64,000 nt of DNA. Source: Bacteroidales bacterium (lineage in GTDB: Bacteria > Bacteroidota > Bacteroidia > Bacteroidales > 4484-276). The translations under genes and the position numbers were made by a program. The notes below the pieces were generated by a model. It was given only the letters and a program-made list of their open reading frames with translations, did no database searches and was not told the DNA's origin. The stretch spans positions 195,135 to 259,134 of the forward strand of contig DASRND010000003.1 in assembly GCA_035647615.1 (NCBI GenBank), read 5' to 3'. Positions 3,120-33,655 of the stretch are shown piece by piece (the stretch's first letter is position 1; each line of letters starts with the position of its first letter).

Positions 3120-5330
3120 ATGCAAGTAGATAAAATAGCATTCGAATATGCAATCAGTAAAATTGATGACGGGAATATCTTTGAGATTTTCGGTAATGAT
3201 TTTCTATCGGCAGTATTAGGTTATTCATTTATACCTGTTGGTAGGGCTAAGGATAAAGGCGTTGACGGATTTCAGCACATATTTTCAAGGGGTGATAGCC
3301 AAAAACACATATTTCAATTATCAACCGAATTGGATCACACAAGTAAAATTTACAACACAATCAAAAAGCTTCAAAAAAATGAAATTGAGTTTGATAGAAT
3401 TGTTTATGTAACTAACAGAAAAATAAACAACGCTGAGAGTTTAATAGATGAAATCTTTGACAAGATAAAAATCCCACTAACTATTTATGACATTCGTTGG
3501 TTTTCTGCTCACAGCAACCAAAGTGAACAAACTATCAAGGCCTATCAAATTTTTGTTGACACTTATCTTCATGAGTACTTCAAACCCGGAAAACACCAAA
3601 CAGTTGCTGATTTAGATTCTGATTCTCGTTTGTTTGTTTTTTTAGGTCAACAATTTGATAGCAATAGAGATGATTTAAAACTAGATGACTTACTCGCTGA
3701 AACTTTAATATTATACGCTTTAGAAGGGACAGACCCCGACAAGCATAACTTAAAATCAGAAGTGCAGATTAAGGAATCAATTAAGAAATATTTAAAGTTT
3801 GACCCACAACTCATAGACAGTAAAATCTCAGAAAGACTGATTGCTTTAACTGTAAAACCAAGAAAAATAAAATTCCATACTAAAGAAAAGGGTTATTGTT
3901 TGCCATATGAAACAAGATTAGAAATAGGTGAAAGAAATCTAAAAGATGAAGTCTTATTCAACGTCTTTTACACTCAGACGCAAGAGACGATTAAAAAATA
4001 TTTTTCAGATGTTGAAGTTCAAGTCAAAGACGTAGAAGCCCTTATTACCAAGGTTTTTAATAAGATATTTCTAAGACAGGGTCTTGAATTTTCAAACTTT
4101 GTTCTGAAGGGTGATAGCCATTCAGTAATTGAACAGAATTTAAATGATGTTATTGGACTAGCAGTAGATGAAAGCAGCGTTATTCTTTCTAATAAAGAAA
4201 AAGTTAAAACCGCACTTCACCTTGCTATAAGAGACATTGTATATAACGGCACATCCGAACAGAGAAGATTCTTGAAGAGCCTATCTAATACTTATTTGAT
4301 GATGTTCCTACTTCAATGGGAACCAAAACTTTCAACATATTTTCAAACGCTTGCATCTCATTTAAAAGTATTCGTTGATAACTCTATTATTATCCCAGCT
4401 CTTTCAGAATACTACCTAGATGAAGGTAACAGGAGACATTGGAATCTACTAATGGGGGCAAAAAAAGCCGGTATTTCAATGTTTATAAATGAAACATTAT
4501 TGAGTGAACTAGTTTCCCATTTAAGAATGGTAAGTAGCATTTATTATAATATGTTTTACCGTATGGAAGACTTCTACCTTAATGACGAGTTTGAACTGCT
4601 TTTTATTAACGAAATTTTAATCAGGGCTTATTTCTATGCGAAGAAAAAAGGGCAGATAAAAGATTTTGATAAATTCATTGACACTTTTGTGGATTCGCAA
4701 CTCAAAACTGCTAAGGATGAATTAATCGTTTATTTAAAAGAGATTTTTGGAATAACTTTTATTTCAAATGAAATGTGGGACATAAAAGTAAATGAAGACG
4801 AAAAAGCCAAGTTGACTGAAGAGTTGAGTTATAAGAAAGACTATGATATTAAAGCCGAAAATGATGCAGAAATGATTTTGGCAATATATTACTTGCGCAA
4901 TCGAAATGGCGAATCTTGTGATAGTGGAATCTTTGGTTATAAAACTTGGTGGCTTTCCAAAGATACATCAACATACAAAGCTGTTATTAAATGTTTTGGT
5001 CCAGACAAATATCCTGTTAGTTGTTACATAAGACCCGATTTCATTTACAACTATATAGCCTTAAAACCTACAACAGAAGAAGTCAATAATGCATACAATG
5101 AAATTTTCCCTACAATGTTGGGCGTAAATCTTAGCTATCATATGCCTAAAGAAGTTTCACAGGCAGTTCAAGAAAAAATCAAAGAATATCATTCTAAACC
5201 AGCTGTAAGAGTAAAACAAACCTTGAAAACTCTTTCTGACCGATTGAAATCCGATCCGACTTTAAAAAACAGAAATTCAGTAGAACACTTTTTGGATACA
5301 GAATTAAGCAAACTACAAGACGGAGAATAG
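3120..5330 (+). CDS. large orphan cytoplasmic protein; Mrr/AIPR-like N-terminus and possible PIN-like C-terminal half (function unknown)
   Basis: An uninterrupted 736-codon ORF that is strongly AT-rich, with no signal peptide or TM segment. The N-terminus reads FEIFGNDFLSAVLGYSFIPVGRAKDKGVDGF..IFQLST. The C-terminal acidic pattern is D420, E458, D582, D615. Confidence refers to it being a real CDS, not to its function. Confidence 0.85.
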   Translation: MQVDKIAFEYAISKIDDGNIFEIFGNDFLSAVLGYSFIPVGRAKDKGVDGFQHIFSRGDSQKHIFQLSTELDHTSKIYNTIKKLQKNEIEFDRIVYVTNRKINNAESLIDEIFDKIKIPLTIYDIRWFSAHSNQSEQTIKAYQIFVDTYLHEYFKPGKHQTVADLDSDSRLFVFLGQQFDSNRDDLKLDDLLAETLILYALEGTDPDKHNLKSEVQIKESIKKYLKFDPQLIDSKISERLIALTVKPRKIKFHTKEKGYCLPYETRLEIGERNLKDEVLFNVFYTQTQETIKKYFSDVEVQVKDVEALITKVFNKIFLRQGLEFSNFVLKGDSHSVIEQNLNDVIGLAVDESSVILSNKEKVKTALHLAIRDIVYNGTSEQRRFLKSLSNTYLMMFLLQWEPKLSTYFQTLASHLKVFVDNSIIIPALSEYYLDEGNRRHWNLLMGAKKAGISMFINETLLSELVSHLRMVSSIYYNMFYRMEDFYLNDEFELLFINEILIRAYFYAKKKGQIKDFDKFIDTFVDSQLKTAKDELIVYLKEIFGITFISNEMWDIKVNEDEKAKLTEELSYKKDYDIKAENDAEMILAIYYLRNRNGESCDSGIFGYKTWWLSKDTSTYKAVIKCFGPDKYPVSCYIRPDFIYNYIALKPTTEEVNNAYNEIFPTMLGVNLSYHMPKEVSQAVQEKIKEYHSKPAVRVKQTLKTLSDRLKSDPTLKNRNSVEHFLDTELSKLQDGE

Positions 5331-5782: not shown

Positions 5783-7957
5783 TCACATTTTGATTATTCT
5801 TCCAATGGCAACGGTTTCTCCGCTGTTAATTTTTAAAAGATAAATACCTTTTTTCAATGAACCCATTTCTATGCAGTGATGGTTTTCAAAAGGAGAATGC
5901 AGGATCGAGCGATATACCACCTCACCGGTAAGGTTTATGAGTTCCACGGTTTGCAAGCCGGATTTACTTTCGATGTACAATTTATCACGCACTGGATTGG
6001 GAAATGCTTTAACATCCAAATTTTCTAGCTCAAATACGCTACTCACCACCGTAACCTGAACAGAGTCGCTGTGCGAACAAACACCATGATTCACCTGCAC
6101 CCAGATGTTCCATTCGCCAGGTCCCAATTCCCCACCGATAATCCGGATCGCATTGGATGTGTCGCCGGTTGACCAGAGGTAGTGTTCATAAATATCCGGC
6201 AGCGTCAGGGTAAGCGTATCGTGAAGTGCAATGGCCGTGTCGGCTCCCAGGTCGATTGTAAATCCCGGCTGGATGTCGATGGTTATGGTATCGTATTGCC
6301 AGCATCCGTAATCGTCAGCAGCCGAAAGTGTATAGGTGCCAGGCTCCGTAACGCTATACCAGCTTTTATCGGATAGCTCGTTATTCCAATAGTAATATGC
6401 ATATCCTTCCGGCCCATTCAAAATTGTGCTGTCGCAAACGGTTTCATCCGGGCCAAAGCTAAACTGCGCGGGTGGATGCCGTTGCATTTTCAGCAGCAAG
6501 CCGTCCGCTATCCATCCCATATAGGAATGAAGGGTGTCGTTTTCAAGTTTTAATGTACCCTCGAAATTTGCCGAAAACAGGATTTGTTTACAATTATCCA
6601 ACATGAAATTTTCAGGCTGCAGAGACCTTGAACTATAGGGAATATAAAAATTGCTAATCTCTCCTTGAGGCGAAATCTGTCCAAACGCTGTGCGGGGATA
6701 AGCATACACCATGGTAGTATCGAAAATTGTGACAGTACCTTGCATCCCACATGCGAAGTACAAGGTATCCTCGTAAGCGTCCAGAGAGAAATACACATAT
6801 CCATAAAAAGGAATGTACCACAACGACTCCCAATTTTCGTTAAACATAGTCAGGATAGTCTGTGGGTTATTTTCGTCATAGAAAAGCGTATCATTACCAA
6901 TAATCATGGTATCTCTCACAGCTGCTGAGAAATAGAATTGACCCTTTTCATCGATAACTAAATCTCTCATTATCATTTTCCATTCGAATATTTTCCCTGT
7001 ATGCGTGTAACCGGCTGAATCGAATGTAAGTACGAATGAACGGTCTTTAACAAATCCTTGTCCGGGATCGGGATGCATAATGGTGTCATTTGAAATAATG
7101 AGATTTGTTCTGGTTCTTCCATACACTACAAACCTGTCGCCATCTACCGAAATAAAATTTCTCTTATCCACATTAAGGTATCTATCGCTATCCATTGCTA
7201 CCGAATCATTCTTTTGATTATTTGTGTAAGAATCGCCGTAAAATGATTCCCTCCAAATGAGGTCTCCCGTGGTTTTGTCCATTTTGAGAATGGACGATAA
7301 AACCGTATTGGAAGAGATTACCGAATCCTGTCCAAAATATCGCACGGTATCGGTTTCGTAAGCCCACGATGTATGGGTGGTGTTTAGATAAAGATATCCG
7401 TCGTTGCCTACATACATTCCGGCGCACAAGTCATCGGTATTACCGGAAATGAGTTTGATGTATTCAATATTTAAATCAGAAGAAAGTTTGATTATTGCGA
7501 GATCCCGCCTGTGAAATACGAGCGGCCCGGTTTCTTCATCCCGAATTACACTATCCTGAATGCTCATCCAGTTAGCGAATGGACAGGCGAGATAGATATT
7601 ATTGTCGCGATCGGTTGTCATTGCCGGATCAATCCAATAGAAACTGGCCGAATCTGTAAACAGGTCAAGCGCAAACAAACAATTCCCATCGGGGTCGAAT
7701 TTGGCAATGGCTGCATTGTGCGCAATATTTCCGGCGGAAGGGTGCGCAAATAAGGTGTCGGGCAAGAAAATGGAATCCTGATAATTGACATTTACAAAAA
7801 CATTATTGTAAAAATCGGTGTGAAGAATTTCTGTCTCACTGCGATCCCCTTTTTGAGTAAAGGACACATTCCACAGAGGCTCGAAACTTTGGGCACAGAG
7901 GTTAACCTGGAAGCTAATCGTTAAAAGAAGCAAAGGTAAGATAAAATACTTTTTCAT
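5783..7957 (-). CDS. secreted protein with T9SS C-terminal sorting domain, function unknown
   Basis: Start taken at MKKYFILPLLLLTISFQVNLCAQ (signal peptide, ATG 7957) rather than the ORF-track start at 8080. The C-terminus FPNPVRDKLYIE..KKGIYLLKINSGE..RIIKM is a T9SS CTD. Confidence 0.75.
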   Translation of the reverse strand: MKKYFILPLLLLTISFQVNLCAQSFEPLWNVSFTQKGDRSETEILHTDFYNNVFVNVNYQDSIFLPDTLFAHPSAGNIAHNAAIAKFDPDGNCLFALDLFTDSASFYWIDPAMTTDRDNNIYLACPFANWMSIQDSVIRDEETGPLVFHRRDLAIIKLSSDLNIEYIKLISGNTDDLCAGMYVGNDGYLYLNTTHTSWAYETDTVRYFGQDSVISSNTVLSSILKMDKTTGDLIWRESFYGDSYTNNQKNDSVAMDSDRYLNVDKRNFISVDGDRFVVYGRTRTNLIISNDTIMHPDPGQGFVKDRSFVLTFDSAGYTHTGKIFEWKMIMRDLVIDEKGQFYFSAAVRDTMIIGNDTLFYDENNPQTILTMFNENWESLWYIPFYGYVYFSLDAYEDTLYFACGMQGTVTIFDTTMVYAYPRTAFGQISPQGEISNFYIPYSSRSLQPENFMLDNCKQILFSANFEGTLKLENDTLHSYMGWIADGLLLKMQRHPPAQFSFGPDETVCDSTILNGPEGYAYYYWNNELSDKSWYSVTEPGTYTLSAADDYGCWQYDTITIDIQPGFTIDLGADTAIALHDTLTLTLPDIYEHYLWSTGDTSNAIRIIGGELGPGEWNIWVQVNHGVCSHSDSVQVTVVSSVFELENLDVKAFPNPVRDKLYIESKSGLQTVELINLTGEVVYRSILHSPFENHHCIEMGSLKKGIYLLKINSGETVAIGRIIKM

Positions 7958-21904: not shown

Positions 21905-22822
21905 ATGCTGTTACAATACATTGTCTGGAGCGTGAATCCTGAAATATTTCCCGGAACCGGAATCCATGTGCGATGGTACGGAGTTTTGTTTGCAGCAGCT
22001 TTCGGCTTTGGCTATCTGGTGATGCTGCGAATTTTTAAACATGAAAAACTGCCGGTGAGCATGCTCGACAAGCTTTCGATGTATATGCTTATCGCCACGG
22101 TGATAGGCGCGCGGCTGGGGCACATTATCTTTTACGAAGCAGATTATTACCTGGCCAATCCTATCGAAGTTCTAAAAATCTGGAACGGCGGACTGGCTTC
22201 ACATGGTGCCGCCATTGGTATCCTGGTGGGGTTGTGGCTCTTTACACGCAAAACCAAAAAGACCTATTTCTGGGTTATGGATCGCATCGTGATTGTAGTA
22301 GCGCTGGGCGGTGCTTTTATTCGTTTGGGCAACCTGATGAACTCCGAAATAATAGGAAACATCACCGACGTGCCCTGGGCTTTTATCTTTACGAGCTACG
22401 ATGCCGCGCCGCGTCATCCCGCACAAATCTACGAAGCGCTCAGCTATCTGGCCATCTTCGGATTCCTCTATTGGATATACTGGCGTAACGATGGCAAACC
22501 CAGGCCAGGATTCATTTTTGGGATATTCTTGATTTTGCTTTTTACGGCGCGCTTCCTCATCGAATTTGTAAAAGAACCCCAGGTAGATTTCGAAACCACC
22601 ATGACGCTCAACATGGGCCAATGGCTCAGTCTGCCCTTTATTGCCGTTGGATTGGTAATTGTGCTGATAAACCCGATAATGGCGACATTGACAGCTATTA
22701 TGAAAATAATCCAAAGATTCTTCAAGAATATAAAACTGACATTAAGACGGATATTAGGAAAAATTTGGAAATCTTTTGAGAGGCGGCTAGAAGAATTCTT
22801 AAAATGGAAACGAAGTTTATAA
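21905..22822 (+). CDS. lgt: prolipoprotein diacylglyceryl transferase; last ~45 codons read through a decayed HepT remnant
   Basis: Lgt blocks VRWYGVLFAAAF, GGLASHGAAIG and RHPAQIYEAL, then the last TM helix GQWLSLPFIAVGLVIVLI. The tail from ~22690 onward is nucleotide-homologous to hepT but is read in a different frame. Confidence 0.85.
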   Translation: MLLQYIVWSVNPEIFPGTGIHVRWYGVLFAAAFGFGYLVMLRIFKHEKLPVSMLDKLSMYMLIATVIGARLGHIIFYEADYYLANPIEVLKIWNGGLASHGAAIGILVGLWLFTRKTKKTYFWVMDRIVIVVALGGAFIRLGNLMNSEIIGNITDVPWAFIFTSYDAAPRHPAQIYEALSYLAIFGFLYWIYWRNDGKPRPGFIFGIFLILLFTARFLIEFVKEPQVDFETTMTLNMGQWLSLPFIAVGLVIVLINPIMATLTAIMKIIQRFFKNIKLTLRRILGKIWKSFERRLEEFLKWKRSL

Positions 22823-22950
22823 TTAAAAGTGCTTAAATAATCATCGGAACCCGAAGCCGAATAATTCATGGCTGCGACAAAATTTCCGATGATTTGACTT
22901 GGAGTATTGTAATCAATCATTTACCCTGATTAAAAGGCGAAACCAAGGGA
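22687..22950 (+). pseudogene. decayed HepT (DUF86) toxin remnant
   Basis: By-eye alignment of ~265 nt to 23402-23670 of the intact hepT downstream gives roughly 80% identity. There is a 3-nt deletion and in-frame stops, for example GCTTAAATAATC where hepT has GCCGAAAAAATT. GTRSRIIHGCD is still readable. Confidence 0.65.
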
Positions 22951-22980
22951 TTTTCGAATTAATAAAATGCCTAAGATGTT

Positions 22981-23020
22981 TGCGGTGGCTGAGCCTGTTG
23001 AAACCACGCAATCAAAAGGA
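22981..23020. repeat. ~40-nt hairpin-like motif TGCGGTG..TGAGCCTGTYGAAA.., copy 1
   Basis: It is similar to 56021-56060. Both copies lie just upstream of a plus-strand start codon. Confidence 0.4.
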
Positions 23021-23055
23021 ATGATGATTGATAAAAAAGATCATACTTTTGTGTT

Positions 23056-23355
23056 ATGAAGATTATCGACAAAAATATTGATAGAATCAGGGCTTTATGC
23101 AATGAGCATAGAGTGGCTCAGCTATTTGTATTTGGTTCAGTATTGAGTGATCGTTTTGATGATGCAAGTGATGTCGACTTTCTGGTTGATTTTGCAGGGG
23201 TAGATTTGTACGATTATGCGGATAATTATTTTGATTTTAAAAAATCGTTGGAAAATGTACTCAGGAGGGAGGTAGACTTGCTTGAAGGGAAAGCCGTTAA
23301 AAATCCATATCTTCTTGAATCGATAAATGCTTCAAAACAATTGATCTATGGATAA
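23056..23355 (+). CDS. mntA: MntA-type nucleotidyltransferase antitoxin
   Basis: GSVLSDRFDDASDVDFLVDF is the minimal nucleotidyltransferase G-S..D-x-D motif. It overlaps the downstream DUF86 gene by 8 nt (ATGGATAA). Confidence 0.75.
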   Translation: MKIIDKNIDRIRALCNEHRVAQLFVFGSVLSDRFDDASDVDFLVDFAGVDLYDYADNYFDFKKSLENVLRREVDLLEGKAVKNPYLLESINASKQLIYG

Positions 23356-23698
23356 AGAGATAAAAACATGGCTTTATGATACTTTGCAATCCATCGAAGA
23401 GATTGAAAGCTATTATGAAAACAAGCCAAGGATTTATGAAGAATATAAAACGGACATTAAGACTAAGAGGGCTATTGAGCGGAATTTGGAAATCATTGGA
23501 GAGGCCGTTAATAGGATTCTAAAAAAAGACCCGAAATTTATACTTAACAATGCCGAAAAAATTATCGGAACCCGAAACCGAATAATTCATGGCTACGACA
23601 AAGTTTCTGATGATTTGGTTTGGAGTATTGTAATCAAGCATTTACCCCGGCTAAAAGACGAAGTGGATGGATTGTTGAGCGAATCATGCGGTGATTAA
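23348..23698 (+). CDS. hepT: HepT (DUF86/HEPN) toxin
   Basis: RNRIIHGYD is the HEPN R-x4-H-x-Y motif. The protein is 116 aa and pairs with the upstream nucleotidyltransferase. Confidence 0.8.
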   Translation: MDKEIKTWLYDTLQSIEEIESYYENKPRIYEEYKTDIKTKRAIERNLEIIGEAVNRILKKDPKFILNNAEKIIGTRNRIIHGYDKVSDDLVWSIVIKHLPRLKDEVDGLLSESCGD

Positions 23699-23798
23699 GA
23701 TGTGTTTTTACCGCAAATAGTGCGGAAAATAAAAACGCACTCTTCAGTAACCATTTCCCTCCTCATTCTAAAAACCTTTTTTTTAAAATCGATTTATA

Positions 23799-23840
23799 AA
23801 AAAAATGCCGGCAACAGATATCTGTTTGCCGGCATTTTTT
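23799..23840. terminator. bidirectional terminator hairpin
   Basis: AAAAAATGCCGGCAACAGATATCTGTTTGCCGGCATTTTTT is a near-perfect palindrome flanked by an A-run and a T-run, between convergent genes. Confidence 0.65.
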
Positions 23841-23860: not shown

Positions 23861-26800
23861 CTAAAACTTCTCCAACAGCTCGTTTAGAATTGCATCGGTT
23901 TTTGTAGCCTGTTCGGATTGCTTGAACTCTCTGGCCAGCATCGACATACGCTGCAGTACCATGACAGCCTGTTCAGTTTCCTGCTGGTAATATTGCTTAA
24001 ACTTAGGTTTTAAAGAAGCATAATACTCCAGATCTCCGGCGTAATTATTTATAAAAATATCGGCGGAAGCATTGCCTTTTTCCATGGCACCAGCTTCGTA
24101 ATAGTTTTGCACCAACGACAGCGTGTACAGGTCGTAATGAAACTTGTTGTCGGGGAAGAACTTCTGCATAGTGTCGAGCACTACCACGGCAGAATCGGGC
24201 ATATTTTCCGCGATGAGTGCCTGCGACAGCCGCAAATAATTTTGCATCGGCATGATGGAGTTGCGGCGGCTTTCGGGGTCTAGATATACTTTCGGGTCGT
24301 TCAGGTTACCCCATTTCGCCTTGTTCACCAGCAAGTCGTAACATTCGTCGGTGTTGATTCCGCCCAGACCTCTGTACATGTGGTCGGCTTTTACGGGTAA
24401 AAACCGATAAACTATGCCTTCGAGGTGGCAATATTCATCTACATTCAGCACATTTTCGATAGCGGCCGGACTGGTAAAATAAATGGGTCGCTTCCAGTTG
24501 TTTGAGGCGATGAGGTCGAGCAGCATCAAATCATTTTTATACAAATAGCTTTGCCCCTTTATCTTCCAGCTGACCACCGGCTCAATACGGTCGTACATGT
24601 CTTCCGGAATCAGTTTATTACTCACAAGATAAGCCGAGTCGGTGGTGAGCTTCAGATTTCGTGTGGGTGCAAAATTAAACGAGGAGCCGTCGCCAAGAGA
24701 TACTTTTGAATCAGCGTTTGAACTGGCGATAAAATTGATGACCTGTTTTAGCTCCACCGGGCCTTGCAGTCTTTCGAGTACCGGCACGTAATTATTGGTA
24801 CCTTTTTCGTAATCCTCTGCTTTAAGTGTAAAAGGCAGTTTTTCGGAGTCATAAATTTTGCGCATCATCTGGTGGATGTACCACTCGCCGGAAGCCAGCA
24901 TAAAATTCACTACGCGCACGTCGGTGCGGATTCCTTCTACTTCCTGTACGTACCAAAGCGGGAAAGTGTCGTTGTCGCCGTTGGTAAACAGAATGGCGTT
25001 GGGTTCGCACGATTCCAGATAATTGATTGCAAAATCGCGGGCTGCATATTTCCCGGAGCGGTCGTGATCGTCCCACCCTTCAGAAGCCATGAGGCCGGGC
25101 ACCAGCACCAGCGATAGCACTGTTGCGATAATTGCCGACAGTTTTGGATTTATCACTTTGCGCAAAAGGTTATAAATGGCCAGTACGCCCAGTCCTATCC
25201 ACATGGCAAAAGCGTAGGCGGAGCCGGCGTAGGCGTAGTCGCGCTCACGTGGCTGATACGGATATTGGTTGAGGTACACCACAATGGCTGCTCCTGTCAT
25301 CAAAAACAACAGCCCTACTACGATGGTATTGCGGTAGTCGCGGTTGAGCTGGAAAAATAGCCCGGCCAGTCCCAGCAGCAGAGGCAGCATGAATAGCTTG
25401 TTGTTAGCGCGGTTTTGGCGGGTGGCTGGCAGATTGTTCTGGTTGCCCAGTTTTTTTGCATCCAAAGCTTCGATACCGGTAATCCAGTTGCCGTTTTCGA
25501 TGCTGCCATGTCCCTGAATATCGTTTTGCCGGCCGGAGTAGTTCCACATAAAATAGCGGAAATACATAAAGCCCATTTGGTAGCTGAAAAAATAGGTCAG
25601 GTTTTCGCTAAAGGTAGGTTTCACAATGGTTTCCACTTTGCCTTCTCGGTTGGTGTGGGGGATGGGGACACCTTTTATTTTTCCCCAGTTTTTGTATTCG
25701 CGTATGTGCGTCTCTTTGGAGTTGCTCCACATTCGCGGAAAAACAGTAGTAAACTCAGGATCGTAAACAGGAATGACGCCTTTGCGGTCATCGGCAACCA
25801 CATATTTTTTGTCTTTGTCGCTGCGGATGTACACCGGCGTACCATCTTCCGAACCTGTCACCGGCGAGTTATAATAAGGCCCGTGGACTAATGGCCACGT
25901 GCCATATTGCTCCCGGTTGAGGTATGACAGCAGACCAACCGCATCTTTGGGTGCATTTTCGTTGATGGGCGTATTGGTGTTGGCGCGTATTACAATAATT
26001 AAAAAAGTAGAATAGCCAATGAGGATAAAAGTGATGGAGAGCACGGCTGTGTTGAGCAGCGATTTTTGTTTGCGGAAAAAATAGATCAGCAAGGCCGCAC
26101 CTCCGCCCACAAGAAGTCGCAGGAAGAAACTACCTGTGCCCCGGCTTTCGAGCATTATCAACAGAAAGAGTAAACCGGCAAGTCCGATGGCAATTTTTGC
26201 GTCGCGTGGGTTAACGCTGTTGGTAGCTTTGATGGCAAAAACAATGAGCGCAATCAGCAAAAACGCCAGGAAGATGGTACCGCTGTTGAAAGGAAGCCCC
26301 AGAGTATTTACAAAAATAAGTTCTGAGTGGGCAAACAACGATGCAATTTCCGGGATGATGCCAAACATGATAAAAGCCAGAATGGCTATCGAGATGCCGC
26401 CGGCTAAAAACATGCCCTTGGCGGTGGGTTTGTATTTACGGAAGTAAATCACAAAAGTGATGGCTGGAATGGCCAGCAGGTTGAGCATGTGCACACCCAC
26501 CGAAAGTCCTACCATGTAGGCGATAAGTACAAGCCAGCGCGCCGAGTGTTGTTCATCGGCCACTTCGTCCCACTTGAGGATAGCCCAGAACACGAAGGCG
26601 GTAAAGAACGACGACATGGCGTACACCTCGCCTTCTTCTGAGGAGAACCAAAACGAATCGCTGAACGTGTAAGCCAGAGCGCCTACGATGCCGCTGCCAA
26701 AGATGGCGATCATGCGGCCGGTGTTCATTTCGCCACCCAGCAGCGCAGCTTTGCGTGCCAGGATGGTGATGGTCCAGAACAAAAACAAGATGGTGAAGCT

Positions 26801-27061
26801 ACTCGAAAGCGCCGACATAATGTTGATTGAAAGCGCCACTTTGCTCACGTCGCCAAAGGCAAACAAGGAGAAGATACGTCCTATCAGCTGGAAAAAAGGC
26901 GCTCCCGGCGGATGGCCTACCTGCAATTTGTATGCTGTTGCAATGTATTCTCCACAGTCCCACCAACTGGCGGTAGGCTCTACTGTGAGCAAGTAAACCA
27001 CCGTCGCGATCAACCAGACACCCCAACCTATCAGGATGTTGAGTTTTTTGTATTGTTTCAT
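23861..27061 (-). CDS. DUF2723-family large polytopic membrane protein (glycosyltransferase-like)
   Basis: Start taken at MKQYKKLNILIGWGVW (ATG 27061). The N-terminus TVEPTASWWDCGEYIATAYKLQVGHPPGAPFFQLIGRIF is the DUF2723 signature as I recall it. There are many TM segments and a soluble C-terminal half. Confidence 0.75.
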   Translation of the reverse strand: MKQYKKLNILIGWGVWLIATVVYLLTVEPTASWWDCGEYIATAYKLQVGHPPGAPFFQLIGRIFSLFAFGDVSKVALSINIMSALSSSFTILFLFWTITILARKAALLGGEMNTGRMIAIFGSGIVGALAYTFSDSFWFSSEEGEVYAMSSFFTAFVFWAILKWDEVADEQHSARWLVLIAYMVGLSVGVHMLNLLAIPAITFVIYFRKYKPTAKGMFLAGGISIAILAFIMFGIIPEIASLFAHSELIFVNTLGLPFNSGTIFLAFLLIALIVFAIKATNSVNPRDAKIAIGLAGLLFLLIMLESRGTGSFFLRLLVGGGAALLIYFFRKQKSLLNTAVLSITFILIGYSTFLIIVIRANTNTPINENAPKDAVGLLSYLNREQYGTWPLVHGPYYNSPVTGSEDGTPVYIRSDKDKKYVVADDRKGVIPVYDPEFTTVFPRMWSNSKETHIREYKNWGKIKGVPIPHTNREGKVETIVKPTFSENLTYFFSYQMGFMYFRYFMWNYSGRQNDIQGHGSIENGNWITGIEALDAKKLGNQNNLPATRQNRANNKLFMLPLLLGLAGLFFQLNRDYRNTIVVGLLFLMTGAAIVVYLNQYPYQPRERDYAYAGSAYAFAMWIGLGVLAIYNLLRKVINPKLSAIIATVLSLVLVPGLMASEGWDDHDRSGKYAARDFAINYLESCEPNAILFTNGDNDTFPLWYVQEVEGIRTDVRVVNFMLASGEWYIHQMMRKIYDSEKLPFTLKAEDYEKGTNNYVPVLERLQGPVELKQVINFIASSNADSKVSLGDGSSFNFAPTRNLKLTTDSAYLVSNKLIPEDMYDRIEPVVSWKIKGQSYLYKNDLMLLDLIASNNWKRPIYFTSPAAIENVLNVDEYCHLEGIVYRFLPVKADHMYRGLGGINTDECYDLLVNKAKWGNLNDPKVYLDPESRRNSIMPMQNYLRLSQALIAENMPDSAVVVLDTMQKFFPDNKFHYDLYTLSLVQNYYEAGAMEKGNASADIFINNYAGDLEYYASLKPKFKQYYQQETEQAVMVLQRMSMLAREFKQSEQATKTDAILNELLEKF

Positions 27062-27190
27062 CAGATATCGATTTTGTGCCTTTTCTATTTTGTGGGCGAA
27101 ATTAAACATTTTCGGCCGAGCGGGTAACGATAAAGATTTTCTAAAGAGAAATGACGAACGAAATAATAGCAGAATTCCTACTCATCCACC

Positions 27191-27272
27191 AGTCACCCCG
27201 TGAATTTTGATTAGACCGAAAACATTCGCTCGGGCATTGGTTTGCTGGCCAGACGTTATTCACGGGGTGACT
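27191..27272. repeat. 82-bp palindromic element, copy 1
   Basis: It has perfect 15-nt terminal inverted repeats, AGTCACCCCGTGAAT and ATTCACGGGGTGACT. The internal part contains a G/C-rich palindromic core (GCTCGGGC in this copy, GCCCGGGC in copy 2) and the palindrome CTGGCCAG. Confidence 0.85.
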
Positions 27273-27285
27273 TCATCCACTCGCC

Positions 27286-27367
27286 AGTCACCCCGTGAAT
27301 GCTGACTAAACCTAAAACATTAGCCCGGGCATTGGTTTGCTGGCCAGACGTTATTCACGGGGTGACT
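27286..27367. repeat. 82-bp palindromic element, copy 2 (tandem, 13-nt spacer)
   Basis: It has the same 15-nt termini. The right half of the interior is identical to copy 1 and the left half is diverged. Confidence 0.85.
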
Positions 27368-27575
27368 TTCATTATCTGATTAATTTTTTTTCATGTACTT
27401 CATCATCTTGCAACTTGTCCGTGATATTCTATCGTCGGCCTGTTGACTTACCCAATGCCCATGTAAATGAAAAATTATAGAAAACATCCTTCGTGATGGA
27501 ATATTCTTTAATTTTGGCTCTTAATAAATTATAATCAGGCAAATGAGTAGAAATAACCTTTAAAAAAATAAAATT

Positions 27576-27680
27576 ATGAGCAAAGGACAAGACTCAAAGA
27601 AAGCAGTTAAAAAAGAGCCAGCTAAAACTCCAAAAGAAAAAAAGGAGGAAAAGAGATTGAAGAAAGCTGGTAAAGGCTAA
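27576..27680 (+). CDS. 34-aa lysine-rich small protein (hypothetical)
   Basis: ATG in an A-rich context gives MSKGQDSKKAVKKEPAKTPKEKKEEKRLKKAGKG. A 10-bp stem hairpin follows at 27710-27738. It is below the ORF-track cutoff. Confidence 0.35.
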   Translation: MSKGQDSKKAVKKEPAKTPKEKKEEKRLKKAGKG

Positions 27681-27770
27681 TTTCTTCCGGAAAACAAAGT
27701 ACAACAAAACCTAAGCGGTCGTTTTAGTACCGCTTAGGTAGAACGTTACGGACAATTTAAAAGATAGACA

Positions 27771-28670
27771 ATGAAACACAATAGTCTAAAAATTATGGCG
27801 CTAAGTGCTGTAGCGTTTTTGACCTGTTTTTCAGGTATTATCAGACATGATGTTGATGAAAAGGAGTACTTAAAATTAGCCGAAGAGACACAATTTGATT
27901 GTGTTGGCCGAATTTTTAAAGACACTTCGGCCAGTGGATCTTGTGTGTTAATTAGCAATCGCTTTGTTTTATCAGCCGCACACGTTTTTATTGACACCGA
28001 TACCCGACCTGACACAATGGAGATTAACGGACAGACTATTACTGTATTTACTCCTTACAACGAAAGGGTTACGGATGTAAATAAACTCACCCTGGTTTTC
28101 AATGGGCAAAAAGTTAAAGTTAAAAAATTAACATTACATCCTAATTATCTGGACAGTTTAACGAAAGGTTCGTGCGACATAGCACTAATTGAATTAGAGC
28201 AACCTTTAAAAGGTATTTCACCTGCAAAACTTAACGATGCCTTTGACGAGCTAAAATCAAATGTTGTAGGTGTTGGTTATGGTGCATCCGGACCAGCAGA
28301 CAGACCAGATTTAGTGGATTTATTACATAAAAAGATTGCTGGAGAAAATGTCATTGATAGCATCGGAGGTTCAGAGCTTTCAGGAAATGGAACCATACTT
28401 TTATGTGACTTCGATCACCCAACCCGGGATGACTGCAACAAAATGGGCAGTTCGGTCCCCAGACCTTTGGAGTATATTAGCACTGGAGGTGATAGTGGCG
28501 GGGGATTGTTTAGAAAAAACGGTAATGACTGGGAATTAATTGGAATTTGTGGTGGTGCTGGAGGAGGAATTGATCTTGCACAATTCATGAAAACATATTA
28601 TTACGGACAAATTATGGAATGGACGAGAGTAGCAGCGTTCACAGAATGGATTGATGAACAGACAAAATGA
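27771..28670 (+). CDS. secreted trypsin-like (S1 family) serine protease
   Basis: It has a signal peptide and the catalytic triad contexts LSAAHV (His), DIALIEL (Asp) and GGDSGGGLF (Ser). Confidence 0.8.
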   Translation: MKHNSLKIMALSAVAFLTCFSGIIRHDVDEKEYLKLAEETQFDCVGRIFKDTSASGSCVLISNRFVLSAAHVFIDTDTRPDTMEINGQTITVFTPYNERVTDVNKLTLVFNGQKVKVKKLTLHPNYLDSLTKGSCDIALIELEQPLKGISPAKLNDAFDELKSNVVGVGYGASGPADRPDLVDLLHKKIAGENVIDSIGGSELSGNGTILLCDFDHPTRDDCNKMGSSVPRPLEYISTGGDSGGGLFRKNGNDWELIGICGGAGGGIDLAQFMKTYYYGQIMEWTRVAAFTEWIDEQTK

Positions 28671-28728
28671 AATGTCTGTAACATTGCATTGGCATTATGG
28701 AACAATTCATAAACTAAATAAAACAAAA

Positions 28729-29424
28729 ATGAAAACACTAAAACTTTTGGTAATAGCAGGGATGATGTTACTTCTGGGGTTGAACCTTCAGGCCCAGAAA
28801 ATTAATTATGGGGTTCTTGCAGGATATGTTTATGCTACCCCACATGTTACCCAGTATGAAGATTATGGTACAAAATTGTTTTATCCAATGCATTCGTTTA
28901 ATGTAAACGGATTTGTTGAATACCGGCTTTCCGAAACCTGGGGCATAGCAGCAGAACCCGGGTACATTAGAAAAGGAGGTGTTTTTAAGGATAAGGAAGA
29001 TATTTCGAACTCTTCTGATCATCAACTTCGACTTCATTACATTCAGCTACCGATACTTGCGAATGTTTATTTCTCAGATAGGTTCTTTATTTCCTTCGGT
29101 CCTGAGTTTGCTTATTTAATTAACAAAGACGCCAGTTTTCCATCTCTGGAAGAACAACATTCTGCTTATTATAAATTTACTCCTCTTGAAGAAAGCGCTT
29201 TTGAAATTTCAGCATTGATTGGTGTAAACTATAGCATTACAAAGAATATTGATTTAGGGTTAAGGTATAATCATAGCATTACACGTTTTTCCGAGATAGG
29301 CTGGATTAATCCCAGATATGGAATCGATCTTGGAATCGTTTCGGAACGCTCAAACGCATACAATCAATACCTGCAATTTATAGTGAGGTACAGAATAAAA
29401 CCCGGTGCTAACAAGCGTTCATAA
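28729..29424 (+). CDS. outer-membrane beta-barrel protein (porin-family / PorT-like barrel)
   Basis: Start taken at MKTLKLLVIAGMMLLLGLNLQAQ. It shows alternating beta-strand periodicity, YIQLPILANVYF and a terminal aromatic-rich strand. Confidence 0.6.
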   Translation: MKTLKLLVIAGMMLLLGLNLQAQKINYGVLAGYVYATPHVTQYEDYGTKLFYPMHSFNVNGFVEYRLSETWGIAAEPGYIRKGGVFKDKEDISNSSDHQLRLHYIQLPILANVYFSDRFFISFGPEFAYLINKDASFPSLEEQHSAYYKFTPLEESAFEISALIGVNYSITKNIDLGLRYNHSITRFSEIGWINPRYGIDLGIVSERSNAYNQYLQFIVRYRIKPGANKRS

Positions 29425-29427
29425 AAC

Positions 29428-29688
29428 ATGGATAAGGATTTTTTAAAATCAAAGATTAAAACAAACGTCTATCACATAAAACCTGATAGCAACGTAGCTT
29501 TGCATAAACACCAGAAATTTGATGAAGTATTCTACTGTATGAAAGGTGAAGGTTTTGGTGTATTGGAAAATGAAGAACAAGAATTGACTGTTGGTAAGGC
29601 TTTCATTGTAAAAGAAAACACGATGCACGCCTTACGTTCTGATTCTGAAATGTGGGTGGCCTCTTTTTTAATTCCAGTTACGGATTAG
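29428..29688 (+). CDS. cupin-domain protein
   Basis: The 86-aa protein carries ALHKHQKFDEVFYCMKGEG..VGKAFIVKENTMHAL, matching the two cupin motifs. Confidence 0.6.
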   Translation: MDKDFLKSKIKTNVYHIKPDSNVALHKHQKFDEVFYCMKGEGFGVLENEEQELTVGKAFIVKENTMHALRSDSEMWVASFLIPVTD

Positions 29689-29710
29689 ATTTTAAAGAAT
29701 TGACGGGTAA

Positions 29711-29765
29711 CATAGCCCAAGCATTTGTTTATCGGCCTGGCTGGCGTTATTCACGGGGGTAACTT
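29711..29765. repeat. degenerate right half of the 82-bp palindromic element
   Basis: CATAGCCCAAGCATTTGTTTATCGGCCTGGCTGGCGTTATTCACGGGGGTAACT aligns to the right half of copies 1 and 2. Confidence 0.6.
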
Positions 29766-29779
29766 CCGAATACATCATC

Positions 29780-29861
29780 AGTCACCCCGTGAATGCTTCC
29801 TAAACTTAAAACATTAGCCGGGGCATTAGGTTGCTGGCCAGACGTTATTCACGGGGTGACT
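29780..29861. repeat. 82-bp palindromic element, copy 3
   Basis: It has the same perfect 15-nt termini, and the interior is closely similar to copy 2. Confidence 0.85.
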
Positions 29862-29938
29862 TCACTACTCACCGCTCATCTCTCCAACTGCTGGCTGAGG
29901 ACTGCCCCCTGCTGACTTTTCATTCCAAATATCTGTTG

Positions 29939-29946
29939 TAAATTTG
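29939..29946 (+). promoter_or_regulatory. -7 promoter box TAAATTTG upstream of speB
   Basis: It matches TAnnTTTG and lies 24 nt upstream of the ATG at 29970. Confidence 0.45.
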
Positions 29947-29969
29947 TCGCTCAAAAACATTAACATAAA

Positions 29970-30845
29970 ATGGAAACATCTGAAATTTTTGGTGGTCTCG
30001 AAGCGCAATATGCTGAGCTTGCCAGCGCTGTCGCGGTAGTGTTGCCTGTTCCTTACGACGAAACAAGCACCTGGGGCAAGGGCGCTGACAATGGTCCGGC
30101 TGCTATCATCGAAGCTTCAGCCAACATGGAGCTTTACGACATCGAGACCGATACCGAGATTTACAAAACAGGCATTTACACCGCCGAAGCTGTAACGGAG
30201 AAGTCGTCGCCGGAAGCGATGGTAAACGCTGTGGAAAAAGCTGCTGACAAATATCTAAAGCAAAATAAGTTTTTGGTGGGTCTTGGCGGCGAACACAGCG
30301 TCACCACCGGATTTGTGCGCGCCTACGCCCGCCACTTCGACAACCTGAGTGTGCTACAGCTCGACGCCCACACGGATCTGCGCCCCGAATATCAAGGATC
30401 GCCTTACAGCCACGCTTCGGTGATGTCGCGGGTACGCGAGATTTGTCCGTTTGTGCAAGTGGGAATCCGCAGCATGGACATTGTTGAAAAGCCATTTTTG
30501 GTGGATGAAAAACTCTTCCTGGCCGAAGATATTTACGACAACGACGATTGGATGGAGGACGCTGTGGATCAGCTTACCGAAAATGTGTTTATCACCATCG
30601 ACCTCGATGTGTTCGACCCTTCCATCATGCCCAGCACCGGCACGCCCGAACCGGGAGGATTGTATTGGTATCAGGTGATAAAATTCCTGCGCCGCGTGAT
30701 AGAAGAAAAAAATGTAGTGGGTTTTGATGTGGTGGAGCTGGCGCCCGTGGACGATAATAAAGCGCCCGACTTCCTCGCTGCCAAGCTGATTTACAAACTA
30801 CTAACTTACAAATTCCAAGACCAGGCCACCCGCGCAATAAAATAG
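29970..30845 (+). CDS. speB: agmatinase (ureohydrolase/arginase family)
   Basis: GGEHSVT, LDAHTDLR and ITIDLDVFDPSIMPSTGTPEPGG are the Mn-binding ureohydrolase motifs. Confidence 0.85.
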   Translation: METSEIFGGLEAQYAELASAVAVVLPVPYDETSTWGKGADNGPAAIIEASANMELYDIETDTEIYKTGIYTAEAVTEKSSPEAMVNAVEKAADKYLKQNKFLVGLGGEHSVTTGFVRAYARHFDNLSVLQLDAHTDLRPEYQGSPYSHASVMSRVREICPFVQVGIRSMDIVEKPFLVDEKLFLAEDIYDNDDWMEDAVDQLTENVFITIDLDVFDPSIMPSTGTPEPGGLYWYQVIKFLRRVIEEKNVVGFDVVELAPVDDNKAPDFLAAKLIYKLLTYKFQDQATRAIK

Positions 30846-33581: not shown

Positions 33582-33655
33582 TGGAGGTGTCGAGCGGATT
33601 CGAACCGCTGTAGGCGGTTTTGCAGACCGCTGCCTGACCGCTCGGCCACGACACC
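33582..33655 (-). tRNA. tRNA-Cys (anticodon GCA), CCA encoded
   Basis: The minus strand gives GGTGTCG TG GCC GAGCGGTCA GGC A GCGGT CTGCAAA ACCGC CTAC AGCGG TTCGAAT CCGCT CGACACC T CCA. This is a 74-nt cloverleaf that I folded by hand. Confidence 0.9.

Follow-up and report, generated by a model that had tools for sequence, protein, structure and literature searches.

A family of intergenic hairpin repeats in Lentimicrobiaceae and its copies at a rearrangement-prone junction upstream of speB

In the genome of an uncultured Bacteroidales bacterium (GenBank assembly GCA_035647615.1, contig DASRND010000003.1, positions 195,135 to 259,134 of the forward strand), the agmatinase gene speB lies downstream of a low-GC segment of accessory genes that has copies of a short structured repeat on both of its sides, which raises the question of what kind of element this repeat is and of whether it delimits a mobile cassette. 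The whole stretch of 64,000 nucleotides is called the window below. An earlier, sequence-only reading of the window described three 82-bp copies with perfect 15-nt terminal inverted repeats, and these coordinates and arms were found again. The copies, denoted c1 (27191-27272), c2 (27286-27367) and c3 (29780-29861), are all in the same, plus-strand orientation; each is 82 bp long, starts with AGTCACCCCGTGAAT and ends with ATTCACGGGGTGACT, with perfect inverted arms of 15 nt and 52 nt between them (in c1, the left arm occupies 27191-27205 and the right arm 27258-27272, with an interior of ~52 nt). Between c1 and c2 lies a 13-nt spacer, TCATCCACTCGCC (27273-27285), which gives a head-to-tail period of 95 bp; c2 is the left-hand neighbor of the low-GC segment, and the distance from c3 to the agmatinase start codon downstream of it is 108 nt. 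The degenerate right half that had been noticed at ~29711-29765 (plus strand) is real, and decayed: it aligns to the right interior half and the right arm, the latter, ATTCACGGGGGTAACT at 29749-29764, carrying one inserted G and one substitution in the alignment. When both strands are searched with up to two mismatches, the 15-mer end occurs 6 times in the window, against 0.11 expected, and none of 100 shuffles reaches 6. An nhmmer profile of the family returns c1, c2 and c3 with E values of 3.5e-14, 3.2e-15 and 4.6e-15, respectively, scores the half copy alone weakly (E=0.062) and has no other hit in the 64 kb.

The identity to c1 over 85 nt is 92% for c2 and 84% for c3, and the differences are concentrated in the left interior half, in agreement with the sequence-only reading, which had a diverging left and a nearly invariant right half; c2 and c3 have a 32-nt identical stretch in common. 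Of the two interior motifs described in that reading, CTGGCCAG is common to all three copies, and GCCCGGGC is exact in c2 only, c1 having the variant GCTCGGGC and c3 the variant GCCGGGGC. Each copy is predicted to fold into one long hairpin as RNA, with -33 to -36 kcal/mol and z scores of -3.8 to -6.4 (-33.1 kcal/mol and -4.2 for c1), and the predicted DNA folds have -18 to -19 kcal/mol and z scores of -3.9 to -4.8. The coding capacity over the copies is limited to chance frames of 40-55 aa that run into the flanks. The three copies are each other's closest relatives and probably come from local duplication and conversion at a rearrangement-prone, low-GC junction upstream of speB.

The family, in turn, extends far beyond this locus. 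Species-representative genomes and then metagenome contigs were scanned for 12-nt arm cores 40-70 nt apart, and both ends were found at 49 genome and 96 metagenome loci (~145 in all, many of the metagenome loci duplicating genome loci), with the same ends and the same spacing, so that the repeat is not one that occurs only here and the family supposed in the sequence-only reading is borne out. After deduplication, the set comprises 146 copies, 104 of which are 81-83 nt long. The carriers are nearly all metagenome-assembled genomes (MAGs) of Lentimicrobiaceae or of other or unclassified Bacteroidales, and the two best-sampled Lentimicrobiaceae MAGs have at least 25 and at least 23 copies in the sampled loci. 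The 22-mer of the window's subfamily, CCAGACGTTATTCACGGGGTGA, had no match in the metagenome contigs, and the family-wide pattern was used instead; a copy of the window's own subfamily is nevertheless present in an unrelated context in locus L084, where it follows a solo right arm and a 14-nt spacer. No copy was found among the IMG/VR viral contigs, and a phage origin is unsupported. Several public runs have contigs in the Logan collection that break off inside c1 and c3; as a sign of genome-wide copy number these breaks were rejected, because the 32-nt identity of c2 and c3 alone explains them. The literature search found no paper with the arm sequence in a bacterial context or on repeats in Lentimicrobiaceae, and the family is one of undescribed small intergenic hairpin repeats of Lentimicrobiaceae, of a familiar selfish or structural DNA kind.

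All copies are intergenic, in 30 tandem-gene, 13 divergent and 9 convergent gaps, with no common neighboring gene; the four copies placed inside an open reading frame (ORF) lie only within spurious ORFs of ~100 aa. Target-site duplications of 4 nt or more were found at none of 71 copies, those of 3 nt at 2 of 71, and those of 2 nt at 14 of 71, in A/T-rich flanks. Of the arms in the genome loci, 132 of 148 (89%) form inverted doublets, with a start-to-start distance of 65-67 nt in 56 of 66. Identity among the copies of one genome is 96% for the ends and 59% for the ~52-nt interiors, compared with 51% for shuffled interiors under the same aligner. This contrast between ends and interiors is not merely an effect of selecting by the ends, since a search with interiors only recovered 30 copies, and in 29 of these the ends carry 0-1 mismatch; arms that drifted in the way the interiors do would almost never leave a perfect 24-nt core.

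The interiors nevertheless keep their length and fold better than their own shuffles, with mean z scores of -1.6 and -1.8 for the two strands. Neither strand consistently folds better (in 45 of 67 copies the more stable fold is that of the opposite strand), and mismatches of the G-U and A-C types are present on both sides. Covariation is seen at position 2/82 of the terminal stem (G-C in 52 copies, A-U in 7, U-A in 1), and alignments of subfamilies have inner helices that vary among the subfamilies. The arm is itself a small imperfect palindrome, TCAC-CCC-GTGA, and in the ATTCAC...GTGAAT subfamily a perfect 6-3-6 palindrome; in a sister family with arms AGTCATCCGATGAAT, a paired C-to-T and G-to-A change alters both half-sites and keeps this mini-palindrome. 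Head-to-tail arrays with periods of 95-100 bp are present in L006, L008, L013 and L041 as in the window. Solo arms adjoin full copies, a solo right arm followed by a short spacer and a full copy being found in the window, L007 and L084, and spacers of 14-18 nt from a right arm to the next left arm recur in other loci.

We consider it reasonably probable that the elements are non-coding, non-autonomous hairpin repeats built like repetitive extragenic palindromic (REP) doublets, in other words like REPINs (REP doublets forming hairpins) or bacterial interspersed mosaic elements (BIMEs), and that they are kept by a trans-acting protein that recognizes their ends. The REPINs of Pseudomonas fluorescens, described by Bertels and Rainey (PMC3116915), consist of two invariant, inverted 16-mers 71 bp apart with a less conserved spacer, the length and hairpin capacity of which are critical; they are extragenic and form tandem clusters, and the singlets are decayed remnants. 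The present elements are similar to REPINs and BIMEs in having near-invariant inverted ends at a fixed distance (65-67 nt here vs 71 nt in group I of strain SBW25) and a spacer in which the sequence is poorly conserved but length and hairpin capacity are kept, and in their extragenic location, head-to-tail clusters, decayed singlets and lack of target-site duplication, the last of which is also a property of REPINs and of the IS200/IS605-type elements. Under this reading, the functional modules would be the two 15-bp ends, each a small imperfect palindrome, and with inverted ends ~52 nt apart a single strand, whether DNA or RNA, would fold into one long hairpin. A trans-acting protein that recognizes the ends, most likely a domesticated transposase or nuclease encoded in single copy, as in REPIN systems, would keep them near-invariant and would occasionally copy the unit into new intergenic sites without target duplication, and the interior would be free to drift while its length and some self-pairing are kept. 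The data show that copies multiply locally into head-to-tail arrays, decay to solo ends and exchange sequence by gene conversion. The element would thus work like a REPIN and may belong to the class served by REP-associated tyrosine transposases (RAYTs). The sequence-only reading had offered a structured repeat similar either to MITEs, the miniature inverted-repeat transposable elements, or to REP sequences, and the latter label is the better one, because target-site duplications are lacking, the interiors are barely similar and no insertion sequence (IS) with these ends was seen.

Several observations, some on the repeat itself and some on its supposed partner enzyme, count against this reading or set the family apart from known REPINs. 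The ends are shorter palindromes than those of REPINs and BIMEs, the arm's own stem having only 4-6 bp and being weak as DNA (-1.3 to -2.7 kcal/mol); the genomes hold tens of copies and not hundreds; and the host belongs to the Bacteroidales. A passage of PMC3733652 reports a GTAG or CGTC tag for most REPs, and this tag is absent from AGTCACCCCGTGAAT and its complement. In the interior, no family-wide covariation was found, RNAalifold retaining the 15-bp outer stem only. The orientation of the element relative to GC skew is 25:34 over the loci (p 0.3), which gives no support for targeting of a replication strand. No filled site paired with a clean empty site was found, and transposition was not observed. 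The REPINs and BIMEs of Pseudomonas fluorescens SBW25 and E. coli are served by RAYT (TnpA-REP) tyrosine transposases, none of which was found flanked by the present ends in ~1.05 Mb around the copies; among the 2599 ORFs of this DNA, phmmer found no IS200- or RAYT-like one, with an IS200 TnpA query that is possibly imperfect. The only gene retrieved with a regular expression for RAYT motifs (L152 6318-6980, minus strand; NHMH ... YIHNNP; Pfam Y1_Tnp E 1.5e-5) has five copies of another hairpin repeat in its flanks (ACAGGCTAAGCCTGT and ACGAGGCACAGCCTCGT, L152:5850-7125), and from its sequence surroundings it appears to serve that family and not the 82-nt element.

The metagenome contig L152 also holds a stretch identical to the element copy and flanks of L011, a locus of the CAZQIV MAG, which places the RAYT-like gene in a genome that has ~20 copies of the 82-nt element; the gene and its own repeats make up a REPtron in this Bacteroidales genome. 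No left-right arm pair at an IS-like distance that encloses a transposase was seen in the 145 loci. A Pfam scan of 150 neighboring ORFs displayed the 25 commonest families only and is uninformative for single-copy enzymes. Since “atypical secondary structures” are reported on the flanks of a TnpA-REP subclass of Bacteroidetes, 2.6 (PMC6006769), it is plausible by analogy that a partner enzyme is encoded elsewhere in the carrier genome.

The segment that the copies bracket in the window (27368-29710, plus strand), recognized by GC content, Pfam matches and gene calls, has 34-42% GC vs 46-54% in its flanks. It comprises a 34-aa lysine-rich ORF, MSKGQDSKKAVKKEPAKTPKEKKEEKRLKKAGKG (27576-27680), called as a gene on the source contig, which is NODE_3 (360 kb) of ENA sample ERZ12298774. 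The Pfam matches add genes for a trypsin-like peptidase at 27771-28670, a beta-barrel protein of the outer membrane at 28729-29424 and a small cupin at 29428-29688. The pair c1 and c2 is located between this segment and the start of a divergent gene of the TMEM260-like O-mannosyltransferase family (23861-27109, minus strand), which is transcribed away from them, and the half copy and c3 between the cupin gene and the agmatinase gene (29970-30845, plus strand; Pfam Arginase E 3e-66, and named agmatinase by the sources), after which comes a deoxyhypusine synthase gene. A Bacteroidetes-type -7 box, TAAATTTG, read directly from the sequence, lies at ~29938-29945, downstream of c3 and before speB. 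The placement given in the sequence-only reading, with a tandem pair in the divergent promoter region and one and a half copies before speB, matches this gene context.

A strain variant of the locus, L052, from ENA sample ERZ24875805, is 97.6% identical to the window over the shared DNA and retains the small ORF, the beta-barrel gene, the cupin gene, the half copy (with 1 mismatch), c3 and speB. It has no trypsin-like gene, window positions 27748-28714 being replaced by 17 nt in an internal indel with neither an element nor a repeat at its breakpoints, and the peptidase gene is thus a strain-level presence/absence polymorphism. On the left, the homology ends at window position 27385, 17 nt past the end of c2, and beyond this junction lies the end of a Type ISP restriction-modification gene with no element there, so that the segment is present without c2. 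These differences fall away from the elements, so that the low-GC segment does not form a discrete unit with the elements as its bounds, and the idea of a mobile cassette with element ends is not supported in its strong form. The proposal of the sequence-only reading that the copies mark recombination boundaries of a cassette is left weakly supported: the segment is indeed low in GC and strain-variable, but the L052 breakpoints miss the elements. The region of L052 at 3-1919 encodes the C-terminal part of the restriction-modification enzyme (Type_ISP_C E 7e-77; Eco57I methylase domain), which puts a defense gene at the variable junction. Downstream of the left junction, at 27576-27740 of the window, a hairpin, CCTAAGCGG...CCGCTTAGG, comes after the 34-aa ORF; the frame extends to 49 aa in L052, where the stem of the hairpin is kept with a different loop.

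A further change is seen inside c3, where 19 of 43 interior positions differ between the window and L052 without any indel, and the flanks, with one difference each in 138 nt upstream and ~60 nt downstream, are 99% identical. The c3 interior of L052 resembles the neighboring half copy and the L084 copy, and that of the window resembles c2. The replacement of an interior between 99%-identical flanks indicates gene conversion among the copies, and conversion among family members would be the simplest reading of these sequences; the comparison shows recombination among copies at a strain-variable junction. Three further readings of the interior were rejected. A diversity-generating retroelement is not indicated for the swap, since the substitutions are of all types and not adenine-specific. 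Hypervariability of the interior is not a general trait, as other orthologous pairs keep the interior as well as the flanks or better (94% vs 79-85% identity for L001/L121, 81% vs 85-93% for L043/L107). An invertible element is not indicated by 79 comparisons with matched flanks, including that of the window and L052, in which the interior is never closer to the reverse complement, although this is a weak test because most of the pairs are identical. In relatives whose agmatinase is 92-98% identical, speB is preceded by a gene for a C25 peptidase or a TonB-dependent receptor, and no element copy lies within 17 kb. The comparison with empty sites proposed along with the sequence-only reading therefore yields relatives free of copies but with unrelated genes upstream, which provide no clean empty site. 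The region upstream of speB is a rearrangement-prone junction.

Among the alternatives, it is unlikely that the ends are paired double-stranded sites (15-bp palindromes, 67 bp center to center) for a DNA-binding protein of the host, such as a nucleoid-associated, insulator-like or regulatory dimer or tetramer, and owe their conservation to selection at the level of the host, not to mobility. The near-palindromic form of the ends (TCAC-N3-GTGA, or ATTCAC-N3-GTGAAT in one subfamily), their fixed spacing, their conservation in place far above that of the interiors and the joint change of both half-sites in the sister family would all suit such a protein, as would a 72-nt version of the repeat found beside unrelated housekeeping genes in MAGs labeled as other phyla. 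A regulon, on the other hand, would hardly occupy every type of intergenic context with no common neighbor gene, or be lacking at the same genes in close relatives; tandem arrays and decayed solo ends suit a repeat that proliferates and decays, and a double-stranded site has no need of the excess self-pairing in the interior. We regard as similarly improbable a role at the RNA level, in which the hairpin would stop transcription or protect 3' ends within mRNA, as is described for enterobacterial REPs, or would act as a small structured RNA. High stability is predicted for the RNA hairpins (-33 to -36 kcal/mol, z down to -6.4), their location is strictly intergenic, ~20 of the 30 copies between tandem genes are co-oriented with these genes, and c3 follows the last gene of the low-GC segment and precedes the promoter-like -7 box of speB. 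No T-tract follows the hairpins, however, no terminator-like call falls on the elements, the more stable fold lies on the opposite strand in 45 of 67 copies, neither strand being consistently favored, and 13 copies, including c1 and c2, are located in divergent gaps, in which no read-through transcript is expected. A known RNA family was rejected, Rfam 15 giving, at E values up to 10, only a chance microRNA match in 27100-29950 (20.9 bits vs a gathering score of 91). The structured RNA envisaged in the sequence-only reading is consequently without an Rfam match, and covariation holds at the terminal pair 2/82 but not family-wide in the interior; the roles as terminator, insulator or small RNA are not favored by these observations. 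Any effect on transcripts would moreover be compatible with a REPIN-like repeat as a by-product and would not constitute an alternative origin.

Classical MITEs, that is, deletion derivatives of DDE-type IS elements, pairs of which move the enclosed DNA so that c2, the low-GC segment and c3 would make one mobile unit, are very unlikely. The perfect 15-nt terminal inverted repeats, the small size (82 bp) without coding capacity and the position of c2 and c3 as direct repeats flanking a low-GC segment recall such a unit, and small modules, mostly toxin-antitoxin ones, lie between element pairs in L002, L005, L017, L091 and L116, L002 and L005 having the same two modules, the order of which is swapped and the outer flanks of which are unrelated. 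Against this stand the missing target-site duplications, the failure to see an IS-length element with these ends or a transposase gene in ~1 Mb, interiors that are only 59% identical within a genome, unlike those of recently amplified MITEs, and the L052 segment that lacks c2 and has its left breakpoint 17 nt from the expected c2 end. Correia elements make TA target-site duplications. Bacterial MITEs whose terminal inverted repeats are long, such as Correia/NEMIS of Neisseria, ERIC/IRU (enterobacterial repetitive intergenic consensus or intergenic repeat unit) of enterobacteria and the MITEs of Porphyromonas gingivalis, are similar to the present repeats in their size of ~80-150 bp, terminal inverted repeats, intergenic location, potential to form a hairpin over the whole length and association with genome rearrangement, but they have target-site duplications and copies that are similar along the whole length, whereas the present interiors are near-random between copies. 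A MITE of Porphyromonas gingivalis is listed in PMC4596501. Equally remote is the prospect that the 15-bp ends are crossover sites of an unrecognized hairpin-based site-specific recombination system of Bacteroidales, similar to integron attC or Xer pdif sites, that swaps interiors and shuffles small modules (toxin-antitoxin pairs, or the peptidase, outer-membrane protein and cupin segment here). Such a system would account for the replacement of the c3 interior without indels, the swapped modules of L002 and L005, which are element-bounded with unrelated outer flanks, and the frequent toxin-antitoxin content between element pairs: where copies are 0.6-1.3 kb apart, the intervening DNA is mostly a toxin-antitoxin pair. 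Such modules are DUF433/DUF5615 with a HicB-like gene (L002:216-1911, L005:5737-7347), DUF2683/PIN (L017:1440-3000), TacA/GNAT (L091:4616-5764) and BrnT/CopG (L116:11489-12786), and L101 has between its copies a beta-barrel gene that falls in one Pfam family with that of the window. With attC and pdif sites the repeats share a hairpin that has conserved inverted boxes at its base and a variable center in which structure, not sequence, is kept, as well as a position, for some copies, between small accessory modules including toxin-antitoxin pairs. The ends AGTCAC-CCC-GTGAAT, however, fit neither RYYYAAC nor GTTRRRY and have no GTT at the right boundary; they are fully paired, in stems without an unpaired spacer or extrahelical bases; and the copies are mostly solitary or in gene-free tandem arrays, in which element follows element and not gene follows element. 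The recombination-site reading is further weakened in that accessory modules and intergenic repeats both gather in variable regions and that most copies stand alone beside ordinary genes, with ends unlike attC core sites. No integrase gene was noted near the copies, in analyses that included no search aimed at integrases.

If the elements are REPIN-like, as we prefer, their interest lies mainly in the host lineage and the partner enzyme and is modest; the known workings of such repeats are unchanged by the present data. REPIN-type repeats have been studied almost only in Proteobacteria, and the same architecture in an uncultured anaerobic lineage of Bacteroidales widens their range, while the partner enzyme could show whether RAYTs of the Bacteroidetes type or another protein maintain such repeats. 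The elements also break short-read assemblies, with contigs that end inside c1 and c3, and they mark rearrangement-prone junctions and gene conversion, which bears on MAG quality and on strain comparison in digester and sediment communities. The 72-nt version, with arms ATTCACCCCGTGAAAT, would widen the range further, as it is found in MAGs labeled Cloacimonadota, Neomarinimicrobiota and Pseudomonadota, once each. It was located at L003:2495-2567, L012:5266-5337, L025:3872-3942, L074:4463-4534 and L098:1970-2041, beside unrelated housekeeping genes (PilZ/Usp, MnmA/PanB, rubrerythrin/desulfoferrodoxin, OTCase); a neighboring gene shared by the copies in other phyla was sought and rejected, as none was found. 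This distribution suggests a wider superfamily or horizontal spread, with MAG contamination as an alternative.

Other short repeats accompany the 82-nt element. The sister repeat lies ~13-15 nt from copies in four loci, at L034:~7095-7125 (copy at 7006-7088), L038:~7610-7640 (7524-7606), L039:~6930-6960 (6844-6925) and L049:~1083-1110 (997-1079). A further short repeat, AAGTGAAACCCTGACTTAACACA, and its relatives abut the arms directly in at least 9 loci, including L001:~6800-6829, L021:~3374-3403 and ~2088-2117, and the right flanks of copies in L009, L022 and L023; a 37-nt piece of it is 97% identical across 7 loci. The carrier genomes hold several co-clustering families of short repeats. Elsewhere in the window, an MNT/HepT (nucleotidyltransferase/HEPN) toxin-antitoxin pair is encoded at 23056-23698, shortly downstream of the TMEM260-like gene and within another patch of low GC (34-37% over 22600-23800); no element copy adjoins the pair. 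The only match in the window at an Rfam gathering score is a tRNA gene on the minus strand at 33585-33655.

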